The notes below the pieces were generated by a model. That model was not told the origin of the DNA. It saw nothing but the letters and a program-made list of their open reading frames with translations, and did not search any database. Source: an uncultured Gammaproteobacteria bacterium (GTDB lineage Bacteria; Patescibacteriota; Microgenomatia; JAMCZE01). From it: a stretch of DNA of 64,000 nucleotides. The position numbers were made by a program, and so were the translations under genes. Below are positions 6,902-64,000 of the stretch, piece by piece (position 1 is the first letter of the stretch; each line of letters opens with the position of its first letter). The stretch covers positions 246,973-310,972 of the forward strand of contig CAZXMM010000001.1 of NCBI GenBank assembly GCA_964641255.1, in the 5' to 3' direction.

Positions 6902-7872
6902 AGCTCCGCCCGATAGTTTTCGTAATCGGTGTCGTTATTGTGTTTTGTGGCATAAGTTTGTTGTGGTGGCGTCTTAGTCTGGCTCCGGCTAATGAACGAG
7001 ACACCAAAACAGTAAATTTTTCAGTTGACCGGGGCGATGGGGTTAGAGAAATTGCCAATAAACTTCACGAGGCCGGGTTAATTAAAGATTCTGTAGGTTT
7101 TTTTCTTCTGGTCAAAAAATTGGGAATTGAAAAGAATATTCAAGCTGGGGATTTCCAGCTCTCTCCCTCTTGGGGAGCTAATGATATTGCTCGTGCCTTA
7201 ACAATTGGAACTGAGGACTTGTGGATTACTATTCCAGAAGGCTTACGAAGCGAAGAAATCTTAGCATACCTGCAAAAAACCAATCCTGACCAATGGGAAA
7301 GTACCCTTAGTACCCAAATGGCTTGGAAAAAAGATGAGGGGAGATTGTTCCCAGAAACGTACCGGGTTCCAGCAGGGCACACCCTTGATGAAATTCGAGA
7401 GCTCTTGGTTACGACTTTTGATAAGAGTGTGTCTGAACAAATGAGGACGGACGCCCAAAAAGGTGGTTTCACACTTAAAGACCGTCTGATTGTTGCCTCC
7501 CTTATTGAGCGTGAAGTTAAACACGCTGAGGATCGACCCATTGTAGCGGGGATAATATATAACCGGCTTAAAGAAGATATGCGCCTAGATATTGACGCGA
7601 CGGTTCAGTATGCAATAGGAAATTCTCAGAATGGCTGGTGGAAAAAAAATCTCACTCAGCAGGATTTAGAAGTTGATTCCCCTTACAATACGCGTTTACA
7701 CGGAGGACTACCGCCTACACCGATTTGTAATCCTGGGGTAGCTTCCATTCGGGCGGCTATTTATCCCGCCGAAACAGACTTTCTCTATTATGTTTCCGAT
7801 GCTAACGGGGTTAACCATTATGCCAAAACTCTGGAGGAACACAACAGAAATGTTGCTAAATACCTAAGATAG
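6898..7872 (+). CDS. mltG: Endolytic murein transglycosylase MltG (YceG-like)
   Basis: N-terminal TM; YceG-like signature YNTRLHGGLPPTPICNPG; conserved ruvX-mltG adjacency. Confidence 0.85.
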   Translation: MKLRPIVFVIGVVIVFCGISLLWWRLSLAPANERDTKTVNFSVDRGDGVREIANKLHEAGLIKDSVGFFLLVKKLGIEKNIQAGDFQLSPSWGANDIARALTIGTEDLWITIPEGLRSEEILAYLQKTNPDQWESTLSTQMAWKKDEGRLFPETYRVPAGHTLDEIRELLVTTFDKSVSEQMRTDAQKGGFTLKDRLIVASLIEREVKHAEDRPIVAGIIYNRLKEDMRLDIDATVQYAIGNSQNGWWKKNLTQQDLEVDSPYNTRLHGGLPPTPICNPGVASIRAAIYPAETDFLYYVSDANGVNHYAKTLEEHNRNVAKYLR

Positions 7873-36634: not shown

Positions 36635-37219
36635 ATGGCACAATACTCAACTGAACCAAAAGAATTTGAAGAAAAAGTTGTCCAAGTAAATCGAGTGTCT
36701 AAAAAGACTGCCGGTGGCAGTGTGATGCGTTTTAGTGTCCTGGTAGTGGTTGGAGACCGTAAAAGTCGAGTGGGAGTAGGTTTGGGCCAGGCCCTAGAAG
36801 TTCAAAGTGCGGTTCGTAAGGCAGTGGCCTATGCTAAAAAGCATCTTTTTACAGTCCCTATGAAAGGGACGACTATTCCTCATGAAGTGTTGGCCAAGTT
36901 TGGAGCAGCTAAAGTTTTACTTAGACCGGCCCCCCCAGGCTCTGGTGTTATTGCCGGCGGGGCAGTCAGGGCGGTAGTAGAGGCGGCGGGGATTCGTGAT
37001 ATCAGTAGTAAGGTACTTGGTACCGACAACCAAGCTAACAATGTGTATGCGACTCTGGAGGGGCTGAAAAAACTCAAGGTTGGGAGGCTTGGCCAAGCAC
37101 CCCAGGGTCAGAAGTTAGCAGTTACTGAGGCTGGTGTTCCCGAGACCGAGGTCCTTCCCGTGGTAAAGATTCCAGTAGAGCCAGCGAAGAAGCCCAAGAA
37201 GTTTAAGAAGCACTTATGA
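36635..37219 (+). CDS. rpsE: 30S ribosomal protein S5, with C-terminal extension
   Basis: dsRBD plus S5 domain 2-like motifs; 194 aa; 4-nt overlap with rplO leaves no room for rpmD. Confidence 0.95.
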
Positions 37220-37656
37220 ATCTAGCTACTCTTTCCAAAATAGTACAAAAATCTTACCGTCGAGTGGGTAGGGGGCACGGTTCTGGTCGAGTTAAAACCT
37301 CTGGTCGTGGTACCAAGGGACAAAAAGCTCGGGGAACGATTCCGGTAGCATTTGCTGGTTCATCCCTCCAAGCCTCTTGGTTAAAGCGCCTTCCTTTAAT
37401 GCGGGGCAAGGGGAAGAACAAATCTTTTCAAAAAGACGTGGAAGTCCTAAATCTCAACCGTCTTAACAAATTTAAGGCGGGGTCCACTATTACTCTAGTC
37501 ACTCTCATCGAAGCCGGGGTTATAAATAAACTCGCCACCAGAGTTAAGATTGTTGACAACGGCGAAATCACCGTTGCCCTACGGGTCAAAGTTCCTGCTT
37601 CAGCGGGAGCTGCTAAGAAAATTGAGAAAGCTGGTGGTAGCGTGGAGCCTATTTAG
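37216..37656 (+). CDS. rplO: 50S ribosomal protein L15
   Basis: [23 protein letters not shown]. Confidence 0.95.
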
Positions 37657-38057
37657 TTCTTTTCTTTGTCTTTTTCCAGTTGCGAAGTACACTGTGGACA
37701 CCTAATTGCCTTAACTGCAACTAAGGATTGACAATAAGGACAGATTTTCTGCTCGGGTGGTTTTTCAGACTCGCTTCTAGATCTATTCATTTGTTTTACT
37801 ACCAGAAAGATCACAAAACTGACAATCAGAAAATTGACTACCGTATTAATAAAGGTGCCGTAGTTGATGCTGGCAGTTCCTACTTGAAACTTTAAGTCTG
37901 TGAAATCCACTCGACCCAAGACGATGCCAAATGGCGGCATTAAAATATCATCTACCAAAGAAGAGACGATCTTACCGAAGGCCGTTCCAATTATGACCCC
38001 AATTGCGAGGTCGACGACATTGCCTTTTAGAGCAAACTTCTTGAATTCTTCTAGCAT
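37653..38057 (-). CDS. mscL: Large-conductance mechanosensitive channel MscL with C-terminal zinc-ribbon extension
   Basis: MLEEFKKFALKGNVVDLAIGVIIGTAFGKIV MscL TM1 signature; second TM; C-terminal CPYC...CPQC; start moved to the ATG at 38055-38057 (ORF track starts at a TTG at 38099). Confidence 0.8.
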   Translation of the reverse strand: MLEEFKKFALKGNVVDLAIGVIIGTAFGKIVSSLVDDILMPPFGIVLGRVDFTDLKFQVGTASINYGTFINTVVNFLIVSFVIFLVVKQMNRSRSESEKPPEQKICPYCQSLVAVKAIRCPQCTSQLEKDKEKN

Positions 38058-38080
38058 GATAGTGATTGTACCATTTTGCT

Positions 38081-38110
38081 TTCTTGCAATATCTTGCAAT
38101 ATCTTGCAAT
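38081..38110. repeat. Three tandem 10-bp direct repeats (tTCTTGCAAT / ATCTTGCAAT x2), each containing the palindromic hexamer TTGCAA; divergent mscL/fic intergenic region
   Basis: Read directly; extended -10 TGgTACAAT for mscL just beyond on the minus strand; fic ATG 12 nt downstream. Confidence 0.8.
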
Positions 38111-38121
38111 ATTAATGAATA

Positions 38122-39141
38122 ATGAAGATTCTCCAAATTCCCCCATCTTACCGTCTTTCCAAGACCGCTATCCGATTGCTCTCGGAGATTGAGTCTAATA
38201 GTGCCGTTATCAGTGAAATTTCTCTTCCTCTCGAAGTAGAAAGAAATATTCGTCGTCAATCAGTATTAGGCAGTGCTTTGTTCTCAGCTCGTATAGAAGG
38301 AAACACCCTGACGAGAGCCGAGGTAGAAAATTTCACTAAGCTACCTAGAAAAGATCAGCAACAGGTTGAAGTGGAAAATCTTAGTCGGGTAATAGAGAGA
38401 ATTCTATCTCAATGGGCTAATCCCAACAAGAAAATAACCAAGACGGATCTTTTGGATTGGCAGGGGCAGGCGATGCGAAACATTTTGGATACAGAATTCT
38501 CAAGTAGCTTTAGAACTGGCCATGAAGGACTTTTTGATAGAGCCGGGACTCTTTATTATCATGCTCCCCCGCCAGCCTACATCCCCGCTCTTGTTGACGA
38601 GTTACTCCTCTTTGTAAATAGTAAAAAAGAAAAACTCGTTCCCGTTCGAGCTATTCTTGCCCATTTAGTCTTTGAAAAGATTCACCCTTTTGTTGATGGT
38701 AATGGTCGGGTAGGAAGACTTTTACAGCTCGCGATATTAACTAGGGGTGGCTATGCGATGAAAGGACTGGCAGTTATCGAAGAGGAAATTGAGAAACAGC
38801 GCCAGTTATACTACAGAGCTATTGAACGGAGCAATAATTCTGATGCGACCCCCTTTGTTATGCTAATGCTTGAGCTTATTCGTGACGCCTCCCTAAAAGC
38901 AAAGAAGACTCTTCTTGCCAAGAAAAATAATCCTTCCCAACTTGATGTCTTATCTCCCAGGCGTCAAGAGATTGTCCAAATGGTTTACGACCAACGACTT
39001 ATCTCGTTTGATTCTATTCATAGACGTTTTATCAGGATGAGTTCTCGGCAAATTGCCTACGATCTGGAGTTCTTAATAAAACGTGGCTATCTCACCAAGG
39101 TTGGCACTACCCGGGGAGCTCTCTATGCTCCAAAAGAATAA
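38122..39141 (+). CDS. fic: Fic-family adenylyltransferase (AMPylase), class II (internal inhibitory helix), with C-terminal winged-HTH-like domain
   Basis: Canonical Fic motif HPFVDGNGRVGR; inhibitory motif (S/T)xxxE(G/N) = SARIEGN about 140 aa upstream; C-terminal ~70 aa wHTH-like. Confidence 0.85.
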   Translation: MKILQIPPSYRLSKTAIRLLSEIESNSAVISEISLPLEVERNIRRQSVLGSALFSARIEGNTLTRAEVENFTKLPRKDQQQVEVENLSRVIERILSQWANPNKKITKTDLLDWQGQAMRNILDTEFSSSFRTGHEGLFDRAGTLYYHAPPPAYIPALVDELLLFVNSKKEKLVPVRAILAHLVFEKIHPFVDGNGRVGRLLQLAILTRGGYAMKGLAVIEEEIEKQRQLYYRAIERSNNSDATPFVMLMLELIRDASLKAKKTLLAKKNNPSQLDVLSPRRQEIVQMVYDQRLISFDSIHRRFIRMSSRQIAYDLEFLIKRGYLTKVGTTRGALYAPKE

Positions 39142-39159
39142 GTGTGCTAAGATAAGGGC

Positions 39160-40446
39160 GTGAATCGAGTAGTAAATACCCTAATCCAAACCTGGAACAC
39201 TCCAGAGCTGAGAAAGAAGATTATCTTCACTTTGGTCATCTTTTTTGTTTTTCGGCTGTTTGCTCATATTCCCGTTCCGGGAGTTGATTTGGTCAGTCTT
39301 AAAAATCTGTTTGCCCAAAATCAGTTTTTGGGTTTACTTGACATTTTTTCCGGGGGTACTTTGGCTAATTTTTCTGTCATGGCCTTAGGACTTAATCCGT
39401 ACATTAATGCCACCATTATTATGCAGCTCCTACAGATGGTAGTTCCAGAACTTGAGGCTCTGGCTAAAGAGGGAGAATCAGGGCGAATGAAAATTAATCA
39501 GTATTCTCGAATGATTACCGTGCCTTTGGCCGCCCTTCAGGCGCTAGGAACCTACGCTTTATTAAAAAATCAAAATATAATTGGGGCACTTGACCCACTG
39601 ACTCTAGTCTCTCTTATTCTTACATTGACAGCAGGAACACTGCTACTTATGTGGCTGGGTGAGCTCATTACTGAATACGGGATTGGTAACGGTATTTCTA
39701 TGTTGATCTTTGGTGGTATCGTCGGAAGGTTTCCGGTGCTTTTCGGTCAAACGGTATCTATCATTACTGGCGATCAACTCTTTAACATTATTATTTTTGG
39801 AGGGGTAGCACTGCTCGTTATAGCGGGAATTGTTATGGTCAATGAAGCCGCTAGACAAATTCCGGTAGTTTACGCTAGGCGGGTACGAGGCAACAAGATG
39901 TACGGTGGTCAGTCGACTTTTCTTCCCCTTCGGGTAAATCAAGCGGGAGTGATTCCGATTATCTTTGCTGTTTCTTTAGTTCTCTTACCTTCTCTCCTTG
40001 GTCAATATTTGGGGCAAATTCCCAATCCACTGGTGTCCCGAGTAGCTTTGGGACTAAGTAGTGCTTTCGATCCAAGAAGCTGGGTCTATAATGTCTTTTA
40101 TTTTCTACTGGTGATTGGTTTTACCTATTTTTATACAGCTATAACTTTTAACCCGGCCAAAATTGCAGAAGAAGTGCAAAAGCATGGTGGCTTTATTCCT
40201 GGTATTCGTCCAGGAACACCCACTACTCAGTATCTTAACTATATCTTGACCAGGATTACTCTAGCTGGAGCCGTCTTTTTAGGATTGGTGGCTGTTTTAC
40301 CCTCTCTTGTCCAGGGGGTCAGTAGTGTAGCTACACTAACTGTTGGTGGCACAGGAGTGTTAATTGTAGTTTCGGTGGTTTTAGAAACCACTAGACAATT
40401 TGAAACCATGCTAGTTACACGCAACTACGACAATTTTGCTCGATGA
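39160..40446 (+). CDS. secY: Preprotein translocase SecY
   Basis: 10 TM segments, SecY-like; conserved position after rplO. Confidence 0.95.
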
Positions 40447-47996: not shown

Positions 47997-48040
47997 TCCT
48001 TCCTTGCACAAGGCATAATATCTCACTACAATCTTCGGTA

Positions 48041-48706
48041 ATGACAATAACAGATCAACTCCTGGCTAATTCGCGGTTTCTTGAATTAATGAGGCTCAAC
48101 GAAGAAGTTGATGAGGCTCATGATTTGAGTCATTTTAAGCGGGTAACAAAGTATGCTTTAGAGATTGGCCAAGAAGAGGGTGCGGATTTAGAAATACTAG
48201 AAGCGGCCGGAATGTTGCACGATATAGCGAGAGGGCTAGAGACTTCAGGAAAGGTTACTGACCATCTTGTTGCTGGTGCAGAATTGACCACAGAAATACT
48301 TAGCGAATTAGAGTTCCCGCCAGAAAAAATTACCAGCGTTGCCTACGCGGTTTCAATTCATCAAAGAAGAGTAGGAACTGAGGCTAAAACTCTTGAGGCT
48401 AAGATTATTCAAGATGCTGATCTTCTAGATACTTTTGGTTTAATCTACGCCACGCGCTCTTTGGTCTGGGGGGTGCAATCAAAAAAATATAGGCGTCCTG
48501 TTTTTGTCGACGAACACCTTGAAAATTGGGACGACCGATACAAAAATCTCTCTACCATACATTATCTTTTGTACCGACTTAATGACCCACTCTACGATCC
48601 CAAAACACTTCACACTTCAAAGGCACAATCGTTGGCTACAGAGAAGAAGAAACTACTTCATGAATTTGTATCAAATTTTATTAAAGAAGCCAGGGGACAA
48701 ATTTAA
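48041..48706 (+). CDS. HD-domain phosphohydrolase
   Basis: H...HDIAR...D pattern; 221 aa. Confidence 0.7.
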   Translation: MTITDQLLANSRFLELMRLNEEVDEAHDLSHFKRVTKYALEIGQEEGADLEILEAAGMLHDIARGLETSGKVTDHLVAGAELTTEILSELEFPPEKITSVAYAVSIHQRRVGTEAKTLEAKIIQDADLLDTFGLIYATRSLVWGVQSKKYRRPVFVDEHLENWDDRYKNLSTIHYLLYRLNDPLYDPKTLHTSKAQSLATEKKKLLHEFVSNFIKEARGQI

Positions 48707-62997: not shown

Positions 62998-63639
62998 TTA
63001 GACTAATTGTAACTGTTCTCCGCCTTTTTTGCTGCTCGAGTTGGTCTCGGCTTCTTTGGGGGTAGGAGATAACAGTTCTTTGAGTTTGATAAAATCTTGC
63101 TCAAACGTATGTAACAGGTTGGTGGCTCTTAGTGCAGCGGCCGGATGATACATGGGATAGACCAGAAGGGGACGTCCATCCCATTCGATAGTATGGGGTT
63201 GGCCGTGAATCCTACTAATACTGACTCCCTCACCCAAGAATTTGTACATGGAAAACCTGCCTAGGGTCACTACTACCTTGGGGGCGATGGTTTTAATCTG
63301 CTTATCAAGAAATGGCTTAAAAAAAGCAATTTCTTCCGGAGTAGGATCCCTGTTCTCTGGCGGACGGAACTTAACGATGTTAGTAATATAAACTTCTCTT
63401 TCATCAAACCCATTCTTAGCGAGCTCTTTTCGCAGCAGTTTTCCGGCTTGTCCGACAAAGGGTCGCCCCTGCTGGTTTTCGTTAAATCCTGGGGCTTCTC
63501 CTATAAAGAGAATTTCTGCATCTGGATTACCCTCTCCTGGTACTGGATTAACATTGGGCCCTGCGAGAGGTCCCCCGTTAGTGGCGGCTATTTCTTTGGC
63601 AATGTCATTTAGCTGGGATAGTTTGCTCTTAGCGTCCAT
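62998..63639 (-). CDS. Uracil-DNA glycosylase, family 4/5 type
   Basis: GEGNPDAEILFIGEAPGFNE...GRPFVGQAG. Confidence 0.8.
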   Translation of the reverse strand: MDAKSKLSQLNDIAKEIAATNGGPLAGPNVNPVPGEGNPDAEILFIGEAPGFNENQQGRPFVGQAGKLLRKELAKNGFDEREVYITNIVKFRPPENRDPTPEEIAFFKPFLDKQIKTIAPKVVVTLGRFSMYKFLGEGVSISRIHGQPHTIEWDGRPLLVYPMYHPAAALRATNLLHTFEQDFIKLKELLSPTPKEAETNSSSKKGGEQLQLV

Positions 63640-63655
63640 AGTCCCATTCTAGCAA

Positions 63656-64000
63656 TTAAGAAGGAAGGAATTCCGACAAATTAGCCTCATTAATTACTAC
63701 CGCTTTATTGTTACTGGTCACAATTTTCTTGGCGGCTTTTCGCACCATTCCTCCAATTGTGCGCTCAAGAGTACGAATCCCCCCGTCAAAGCCCAACGGT
63801 CTAACAACTTTTGACCAGACTGTGGGATCAATCTGAAGAGAATCTGGGGGGAGACCAGAATCCTTCATAATTCTGGGAAGGACATAGTCTCTTGCGATGG
63901 TGGTTTTTTCCTCATCCGAGTAGGAGGGCATGGTAATAGGTTCGAGACGGTCAAGGACGGCGGTACTAATGTGGGAGGTGTTGTTACTGGTGGCAATAAA
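63656..64000 (-). CDS. lon: Lon protease, C-terminal end of the AAA+ region and following helical region only; gene runs off the window edge
   Basis: Frame open to position 64000: FIATSNNTSHISTAVLDRLEPITMPSYSDEEKTTIARDYVLPRI parallels Lon FIATAN...LLDRMEVI...EDEK..IAKRHLLPK. Confidence 0.75.
   Translation of the reverse strand, partial: FIATSNNTSHISTAVLDRLEPITMPSYSDEEKTTIARDYVLPRIMKDSGLPPDSLQIDPTVWSKVVRPLGFDGGIRTLERTIGGMVRKAAKKIVTSNNKAVVINEANLSEFLPS

Follow-up and report, generated by a model that had tools for sequence, protein, structure and literature searches.

Genes at the fic locus

The window, i.e., the whole 64-kb stretch of DNA analysed here, has the gene order rpsH-rplF-rplR-rpsE-rplO, mscL (minus strand), fic and secY-adk-map. 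mscL (37653-38057, minus strand; Pfam MscL, E 1e-41) and fic (38122-39141, plus strand; a class II Fic enzyme of 339 aa, Pfam Fic, E 1.9e-16) are divergent, and the spacer between their start codons is 64 bp long. The closest Fic proteins are found in MAGs of Microgenomates and Patescibacteria, including Ca. Shapirobacteria and Woesebacteria. In all 14 distinct loci whose Fic proteins share at least 49% identity (the window and 13 others), fic lies directly upstream of secY in the spc ribosomal-protein cluster, and the rplO-fic gap is filled with variable genes: mscL, NUDIX, ASCH-like genes or ABC-2 permeases. The rplO-fic-secY synteny was read at 37216-40446 in the window and in L001-L003, L084-L086, L092-L096 and L099-L102; fic homologues with 48% identity or less are not near secY and keep the array described below. 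A literature search for Fic genes in CPR bacteria, for Fic genes next to secY and for this synteny found nothing. The records of three loci with the CPR-type rplO-fic-secY order, L093, L095 and L096, all from GTDB-representative MAGs, are titled 'uncultured Gammaproteobacteria bacterium', which is probably mislabelled taxonomy. The MscL C-terminus of the window (37653-37745, minus strand) carries a CxxC...CxxC zinc-ribbon-like tail, CPYCQSLVAVKAIRCPQCTSQL, which is unusual for MscL and gives weak Pfam DZR and HypA matches below the cut-off.

Both signature motifs of class II Fic enzymes are present in the window protein. The catalytic motif HxFx(D/E)GNGRxxR appears as HPFVDGNGRVGR at residues 188-199 and is invariant in 57 homologues; the inhibitory motif (S/T)xxxE(G/N) appears as S55-ARIE-G60, with S55, E59, G60 and N61 invariant. 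An AlphaFold2 model based on the 57-sequence alignment (pLDDT 92.5, pTM 0.88) predicts a C-terminal wHTH at residues 279-337 (38956..39132, plus strand), in which three helices are followed by a two-strand wing (H279-291, H296-302, H308-320, E324-327, E334-337) and the recognition helix corresponds to residues 308-320 (SRQIAYDLEFLIK; 39043-39081, plus strand). Foldseek aligns the model with PDB entries over the full length (343-367 columns, E about 1e-11 to 1e-13): the matches are 4rgl (Dde_2494), 7cb8 (Mycobacterium marinum Fic), 3eqx and 3zcn (SoFic), 8cil (CbFic2) and 7xux, which we take to be CccR from its title, length and release date, the entry title lacking the name. In sequence searches, the C-terminal 74 residues of one clade member, P0101, score above the Pfam cut-offs for HTH_DeoR (23.7 bits vs 21) and HTH_12; the C-terminus of the window Fic gives weak Pfam HTH matches, none significant. 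A wHTH profile searched against PDB sequences yields weak generic wHTH matches only (Lrp/AsnC-type), and thus provides no sequence-level link to the CccR HTH. With its C-terminal wHTH predicted confidently, the class II Fic of the window has the architecture of CccR and SoFic.

A 10-bp direct repeat upstream of fic

On the fic strand, the region upstream of the gene reads gattgtaccattttgc TTTCTTGCAA TATCTTGCAA TATCTTGCAA tattaatgaata ATG, with the units at window positions 38080-38109. Unit 1 (TTTCTTGCAA; 38080..38089, plus strand), which aligns with unit 1 of seven orthologous arrays, has a T at unit position 2, where A is near-invariant, and holds the candidate -35 hexamer TTGCAA at 38084-38089. 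Unit 2 (TATCTTGCAA; 38090..38099, plus strand) lies within the promoter spacer, and the 3' end of unit 3 (TATCTTGCAA; 38100..38109, plus strand) forms a candidate -10 together with the next TAT. Rereading of the sequence confirms the framing in the preliminary description, three tandem units at 38081-38110 with one mismatch in the first copy, namely TTCTTGCAAT ATCTTGCAAT ATCTTGCAAT. Tandem Repeats Finder reports the array at 38082-38112 (period 10, 3.1 copies, 100% matches, score 62) as the top-scoring tandem repeat of the 64-kb window. As single words, TTGCAAT occurs 9 times in the window vs 12.3 expected and ATCTTGCAAT 5 times vs 5.4 expected; isolated words are no commoner than chance predicts, and what stands out is the phased array.

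The array was followed through the window and 19 further distinct fic homologues from Microgenomates/CPR, with protein identities from 64% down to 33%; a genome-collection scan with a 16-sequence wHTH alignment gave seven loci. All 20 distinct fic loci carry a 10-bp-period array of 3-8 units of kATCTnGnAA directly upstream of the start codon. The arrays range from TATCTTGCAA three times over (L001), TATCTTGCAA TATCTTGCAA TATCTCGCAA (L093) and TATCTTGCAA TATCTTGCAC ATTCTTGCAT (L003) through TATCTGGCGA TATATGGCAA TATTTGGCAA GATCTGGTAG (L089) to eight units starting at -81, TATCTTGAAA ... GATCTGGAAA CATTTGGAAA (L085), and the 33% identical homologue, L005, still has TATTCGGCAA TATCTGGCAA TATTCGGCAA GATTTGGTAA. 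Unit number varies between lineages (3-8). Within group A it is constant, at three in each of the eight loci, and point substitutions are what sets the units apart. When the upstream regions of the eight group-A orthologues are aligned, 22 of the 24 invariant columns fall inside the 30-bp array, and the flanks are scrambled. The array is not a product of chance or slippage, given its conservation in 20 of 20 distinct loci; it is this conservation, not composition, that carries the argument.

The gene upstream of the array varies and may lie on either strand: mscL, NUDIX, ASCH-like, ABC-2 permease, FKBP and hypothetical genes all occur there. One type of neighbourhood has two ABC-2 permease genes upstream on the same strand as fic, and in L002 mscL is two genes away, with a start of its own that lacks repeats. 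Since the array is present whatever the upstream gene, and since the controls contain no comparable array apart from the second one in L096, it belongs to fic, not to mscL; the link to an mscL/fic divergent promoter, drawn initially, is incidental, as the upstream neighbour differs between genomes.

Two measures attest to the specificity of the array. A model-free test compares each base with the one 10 positions further along and counts the matches in 25-nt windows; by this lag-10 self-similarity, the region upstream of fic outscores every other part of its locus in 18 of the 20 loci, the 64-kb window among them, and lags 9 and 11 give background values there. A position weight matrix (PWM) built from 61 units of 16 loci was used to score three phased units, on both strands in related sequence. 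Every fic upstream region scores 25-45 bits; the best background is at most 14.8 in 200 kb of related sequence (16 loci), a second array in L096 excepted, and at most 16.4 in 462 kb around 78 distant Fic genes. The latter came from a metagenome scan with a full-length Fic alignment and are mostly at most 39% identical among the matches listed; the scan caught mainly distant Fic proteins because the motifs HPFxDGSG/FSARIEGN are universal. The preliminary description held that the same repeat at many unrelated loci would speak against an operator; across about 680 kb of control sequence, it recurs only in the second L096 array.

The consensus over the 61 units is T1 A2 T3 C4 T5 (T/G)6 G7 C8 A9 A10, with A2 in 57, T3 in 59, T5 in 52, G7 in 54, A9 in 56 and A10 in 54. 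The array had been described as 10-bp-phased palindromic TTGCAA hexamers; the 10-bp direct repeat is found family-wide, but the palindrome is broken in relatives, where the counterparts of TTGCAA are TCGCAA, TGGCAA, TGGAAA and TTCCAA. The conserved element being a direct repeat, head-to-tail and not two-fold symmetric recognition is implied.

Three relatives show arrays or genes of unusual form. The second array of L096 (6379-6428) has five units, TATCTTGTAA TATCTCGAAA CTTCTCGAAA GACCTCGTAA TATCTGGAAG. It begins immediately past the stop codon of rplO, with fic 815 nt further downstream, and a small hairpin and a T run come after it; it could be a remnant of an earlier rplO-array-fic order, or an additional site for binding. 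Besides direct units, L095 has an inverted pair, ATATCTGGAAAA-N13-TTTTTCCAGATAT, at about 7155-7197, just before the fic ATG; it is the sole locus seen with units in both orientations, which recalls the inverted boxes of CccR. In L099, the first 20 fic codons (2438-2503; VKYLTIPPKYELTKK...) are out of frame, with the shift at an A6 run that is either an assembly error or the mark of a pseudogene; the three-unit array is intact despite the frame shift.

Bases of the repeat vary together with residues of the predicted recognition helix, R-x1-x2-x3-Y-D-L, in which R and Y were called invariant and x1 and x3 vary. Helix RQ(I/L)AYDL (window, L001, L002, L003, L092, L093, L099, L100) goes with TGC, occasionally CGC, at unit positions 6-8; RTLRYDL (L087, L089, L090, L005) with GGC or GGT; R(L/M/S)L(S/R)(Y/N)DL (L084, L085, L095, L096, L102) mostly with nGA; and (S/K)(S/T)LHYDI (L004, L098) with TCC or TCT. 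That variable helix positions track variable unit positions is suggestive, and shared ancestry could account for most of the pattern. The sole break in this phylogenetic confound is L005: its helix and its GGC units are those of group D (L087, L089, L090), yet its Fic core has just 36-38% identity to that group and is no nearer to it than to L004/L098. Such natural specificity variants, with helix Q..A and TTGC (TCTTGCAA units) or T..R and TGGC (TCTGGCAA units), make a recognition code testable with short oligonucleotides and a 70-residue domain.

Promoter geometry and probable leaderless genes

The candidate -10 region of fic (38107..38115, plus strand), read from the sequence, is CAATAT or an overlapping TATTAA. 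CAATAT (38107-38112) begins 17 bp after the unit-1 TTGCAA and ends 9 nt before the ATG; TATTAA (38110-38115) ends 6 nt before the ATG. The same geometry holds in all eight group-A loci, in which the unit-1 TTGCAA is followed, after exactly 17 bp, by a hexamer that spans the unit-3 end (CAATAT, CAAGAT, CATGCT or CATCAT, all with A2 and T6). The gap between this hexamer and the start codon is 6-7 nt in L093, L002, L003, L092, L099 and L100 and 9 nt in the window and L001, both of which have overlapping hexamers, TATTAA or TATGAT, 6 nt from the ATG. The candidate fic -10 hexamers are weak by E. coli standards. The fic mRNA is likely to be leaderless or near-leaderless, with a leader of at most 3 nt. 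The array would then span about -13 to -42 of the putative leaderless fic promoter, i.e., the -35 element and the spacer, and a protein bound over this region normally represses. The sole homologue with a long leader (25 nt), L090, carries a GAGG Shine-Dalgarno.

Two other promoter types were considered and set aside. An E. coli-type promoter scanner proposes TTGCAA-18-AATAAT, which ends inside the fic start codon, and was rejected because that start codon is conserved in all homologues. A sigma-54 promoter (-24 TGGCAC N5 TTGCA -12) does not fit either: the distance from one TTGCA to the next, start to start, is 10 bp where 11 bp would be required, this group shows TG in place of GG at -24, and arrays have 3-8 units, not 2.

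On the opposite strand, the mscL promoter has an extended -10 (TGGTACAAT; 38065..38073, minus strand) whose distance from the mscL ATG at 38057 is 7 nt, in the order TGgTACAAT, 7 nt, ATG. TnnTACAAT recurs before other divergent neighbour genes in L001, L003, L084, L092, L096 and L102. The array had been described as overlapping the likely mscL promoter with its extended -10; this element adjoins the array and lies outside it, and relative to mscL the repeats occupy about -22 to -52. Given this position, effects on mscL are possible in this genome, but in evolution they are incidental.

Downstream, secY has an extended -10 of its own, TGcTAAGAT (39145-39153), just after the fic stop codon and 6 nt before its GTG at 39160, which rules out the fic promoter as the driver of secY. 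TGnTAAGAT, TGnTAAAAT or TGaTAATAT is found 6-11 nt before secY in L096, L101, L092 and L003, and secY looks leaderless and independent of the fic promoter. The gene at 48041 has TTGCAC, 17 bp, TACAAT, 8 nt and ATG (region 48000-48043), and that at 63639 has TGcTAGAAT, 6 nt and ATG (promoter region 63640-63660, minus strand). In mscL, secY and these two genes, all probably leaderless, the distance between hexamer and start codon agrees with that proposed for fic. TANNAT is present 5-8 nt before the start codon in 6 of 73 window genes vs a background of about 0.4 per offset. Most window genes, including ribosomal-protein genes, have no visible Shine-Dalgarno, and several operon heads have TANNAT or TGnTANNAT 6-8 nt upstream. 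This pattern suggests that leaderless mRNAs are frequent in this CPR genome and adds to the evidence for common leaderless transcription from extended -10 promoters in CPR.

Candidate readers of the array

We consider it reasonably probable that the array serves the Fic wHTH as an iterated operator for autorepression, set within the core promoter of fic. TTGCAA in unit 1, which resembles a -35, and CAATAT/TATTAA at the end of unit 3, which resembles a -10, would direct fic transcription, which would start at the ATG or 2-3 nt before it and produce a leaderless mRNA. The DeoR-like winged helix at the C-terminus of Fic would recognise each 10-bp unit, so that several domains could form a head-to-tail row along one side of the double helix, over the -35 element and the spacer; the bound domains would exclude RNA polymerase and repress fic, i.e., act in negative autoregulation. 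Four elements of this scheme we infer: Fic as the binder, repression, the stoichiometry and the transcription start. Fic may activate instead of repressing, and there may be a wider regulon or an unlinked regulator that shares these sites; the scan covered about 220 kb of related genomes.

Self-regulation has been documented for a similar protein. CccR of Yersinia pseudotuberculosis, a class II Fic that has the SARIEG motif and an HTH at its C-terminus, represses its own promoter 3.3-fold (PMC9755527). Footprint, EMSA and reporter assays show that it protects AGATAATCAT-N26-ATGATAATCT over its own -35/-10, and its binding needs the HTH and dimerisation (PMC9755527). SoFic of Shewanella oneidensis, which AMPylates EF-Tu, also binds DNA just ahead of its own gene, in the first 100 upstream bp (bioRxiv 10.64898/2026.07.09.737422); with EF-Tu as its target, a link of fic to translation or secretion is worth considering here. 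CbFic2 of Coxiella burnetii binds DNA via a DeoR-type wHTH, apparently without sequence specificity, and switches from AMPylase to deAMPylase (PMC10628234).

The CPR protein shares with CccR the domain order, the SARIEG motif, a full-length structural match and 10-bp boxes over the -35/-10 of its own promoter, which here is a candidate one; the CccR box starts with AGATA, the complement of the TATCT unit start here, which is a lead only. The operators differ: CccR has two inverted 10-bp boxes 26 bp apart, read by a back-to-back dimer, whereas here 3-8 direct repeats are contiguous, and among our loci an inverted copy occurs in L095 only. The proteins are also remote, at 19-21% identity, with CccR being a T6SS effector and the Fic described here being part of a CPR ribosomal-protein cluster as read from sequence. 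SoFic (3eqx, 3zcn) and CbFic2 (8cil) are likewise class II Fic enzymes with a C-terminal wHTH and a full-length structural match, but are 17-18% identical and have an N-terminal dimerisation helix on a longer N-terminus. SoFic is described without a defined operator sequence, binding by CbFic2 appears non-specific, and neither was reported with tandem repeats. That known Fic-HTH proteins are dimers on inverted repeats (CccR) or non-specific binders (CbFic2) counts against the autorepressor reading.

OmpR/PhoB winged helices bind direct repeats phased by about one helical turn, do so cooperatively and are usually activators. A second precedent is CggR, a winged-helix repressor that reads tandem direct repeats cooperatively (PMC2943609). 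A winged helix and phased direct repeats over a promoter are common to these systems and the fic array, in functional analogy, not homology: the Fic described here has no receiver or sugar-binding domain, and CggR repeats are about 22 bp long, each with a small palindrome for a dimer, against units of 10 bp here.

The preliminary description proposed an iterated operator for the adjacent Fic wHTH, and this idea gains support from the wHTH model, the linkage in 20 of 20 loci, the specificity of the array, the covariation and the CccR/SoFic precedent; the binding itself we infer. The accompanying remark that Fic proteins with an HTH are often autoregulators rests on two studied proteins, CccR, for which autorepression is shown, and SoFic, for which the evidence is limited to binding of its upstream DNA. 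Self-regulating Fic-wHTH proteins are thus already known; what appears to be new is the use of contiguous direct 10-bp repeats as a candidate operator, together with the CPR clade and the rplO-secY position. The operator design is counted as new because it consists of tandem direct repeats, not of the two inverted boxes of CccR. Fic-HTH autoregulation has so far been shown for CccR and suggested for SoFic, both from cultured proteobacteria, and the sole defined operator is an inverted repeat. The window and the 19 related loci offer a candidate operator, defined in sequence and validated by evolution, whose contiguous direct repeats recur once per helical turn and vary in number. To our knowledge, CPR gene regulation is almost unknown, and a cis-regulatory site with its probable regulator is a rare proposal for this group.

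The array could also be a conserved fic promoter element that is read by something other than Fic: an unlinked direct-repeat factor, e.g., an OmpR/PhoB-type activator that makes up for a poor -35, or RNA polymerase itself using overlapping hexamers. Tandem 10-11 bp direct repeats over the -35 element are the classic layout of OmpR/PhoB sites, which the array resembles; each unit contains a -35-like TTGCAA or CTGGCA, each junction a -10-like nAAkAT, and units two apart give the canonical spacing of 17-18 bp. We nevertheless regard this reading as unlikely. A general factor should occupy other promoters, and there are none in 221 kb of related DNA besides the extra L096 copy next to fic; promoter function alone leaves the conserved middle (spacer) unit and the eight-unit arrays reaching to -81 unaccounted for. 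Furthermore, bases of the repeat change together with the recognition helix of Fic, and the sole DNA-binding domain consistently linked to the array is that of Fic. Should Fic binding fail, the array would still be a strongly conserved, fic-specific promoter element.

The autorepressor proposal can be extended, in a form that we hold to be distinctly doubtful, to a CPR Fic that forms a head-to-tail multimer on its 3-8-unit operator and couples promoter occupancy to its AMPylase/deAMPylase state, hence acting as a self-limiting regulator of translation or secretion in bacteria with reduced genomes. The latter role is suggested by the fixed position of fic between rplO and secY and by the targeting of EF-Tu by SoFic. 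If true, this would be among the first transcription factor/operator pairs defined for CPR.

It is very unlikely that the array mainly controls the enzyme, with a phased Fic oligomer switching AMPylation vs deAMPylation and transcription being secondary. Upon DNA binding via its wHTH, CbFic2 changes from a monomeric AMPylase to a dimeric deAMPylase (PMC10628234), SoFic activity depends on dimerisation (bioRxiv 10.64898/2026.07.09.737422), and the variable number of units (3-8) suggests multimer assembly. Yet CbFic2 binds DNA without sequence specificity, one site per genome could titrate few molecules, and the fixed position of the array over -35, spacer and -10 beside the start codon points to control of transcription. 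Control of the enzyme is in any case compatible with an autorepressor operator and is not an exclusive alternative to it.

It is highly improbable that the repeats work at the RNA level, as a platform or structure in a transcribed leader, or that they are slippage-prone and either phase-variable or functionless. In favour, the arrays of L100 and L099 and the second array of L096 start right after the stop codon of the same-strand upstream gene, so that read-through transcripts would contain the repeats, and copy number is 3-8 across lineages. Against it, the predicted RNA fold does not stand out from that of shuffled sequences (z = -0.57), the window has just 22 bp between the array and the divergent start of mscL, with little space for an upstream promoter, and conservation at 33-64% protein identity excludes recent neutral slippage. 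A search of the array against Rfam gave no match.

Other classes of iterated DNA were also compared. A phase-variable simple repeat does not fit the eight group-A loci, all of which have three units with substitutions between units. Plasmid or replicon iterons (17-22 bp, with a rep gene and an AT-rich origin) differ from the 10-bp units at a chromosomal rplO-secY locus that has no rep gene. A scan of viral contigs with the degenerate three-unit pattern ATCTnGnAAn x3 gave 10 stretches (L103-L112), about six of them distinct, that are other 10-bp tandem repeats, e.g., AAATCTCGCA, CATCTAGCAA and AGATCTTGTA. They were judged unrelated because a loose pattern will catch some of the many 10-bp tandem repeats in a large collection. 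No Fic homologue was found in the fetched flanks of these stretches, none of the L104 ORFs resembles a Fic or HTH protein, and no Fic relatives were found in viral contigs. Among these repeats, CATCTAGCAA occurs six times in L104/L108, and AAATCTCGCA three to six times in L103/L106, upstream of a possible tRNA gene; several of the viral and giant-virus arrays have the unit-to-unit substitutions typical of maintained repeats and are probably unrelated.

A second iterated repeat, with a 9-bp period, lies between fic and secY: CTTAAGnnn x4 (aaaCTTAAGtgcCTTAAGattCTTAAGcttCCTAAGcg), seen in the fic-secY spacers of L093 and L002 (4021-4074 in the latter). A similar run, CTCAAGcgaCCTAAGtctCCTAAGcgaCTTAAC, is found in L093 at about 7090-7130, upstream of the fic array.
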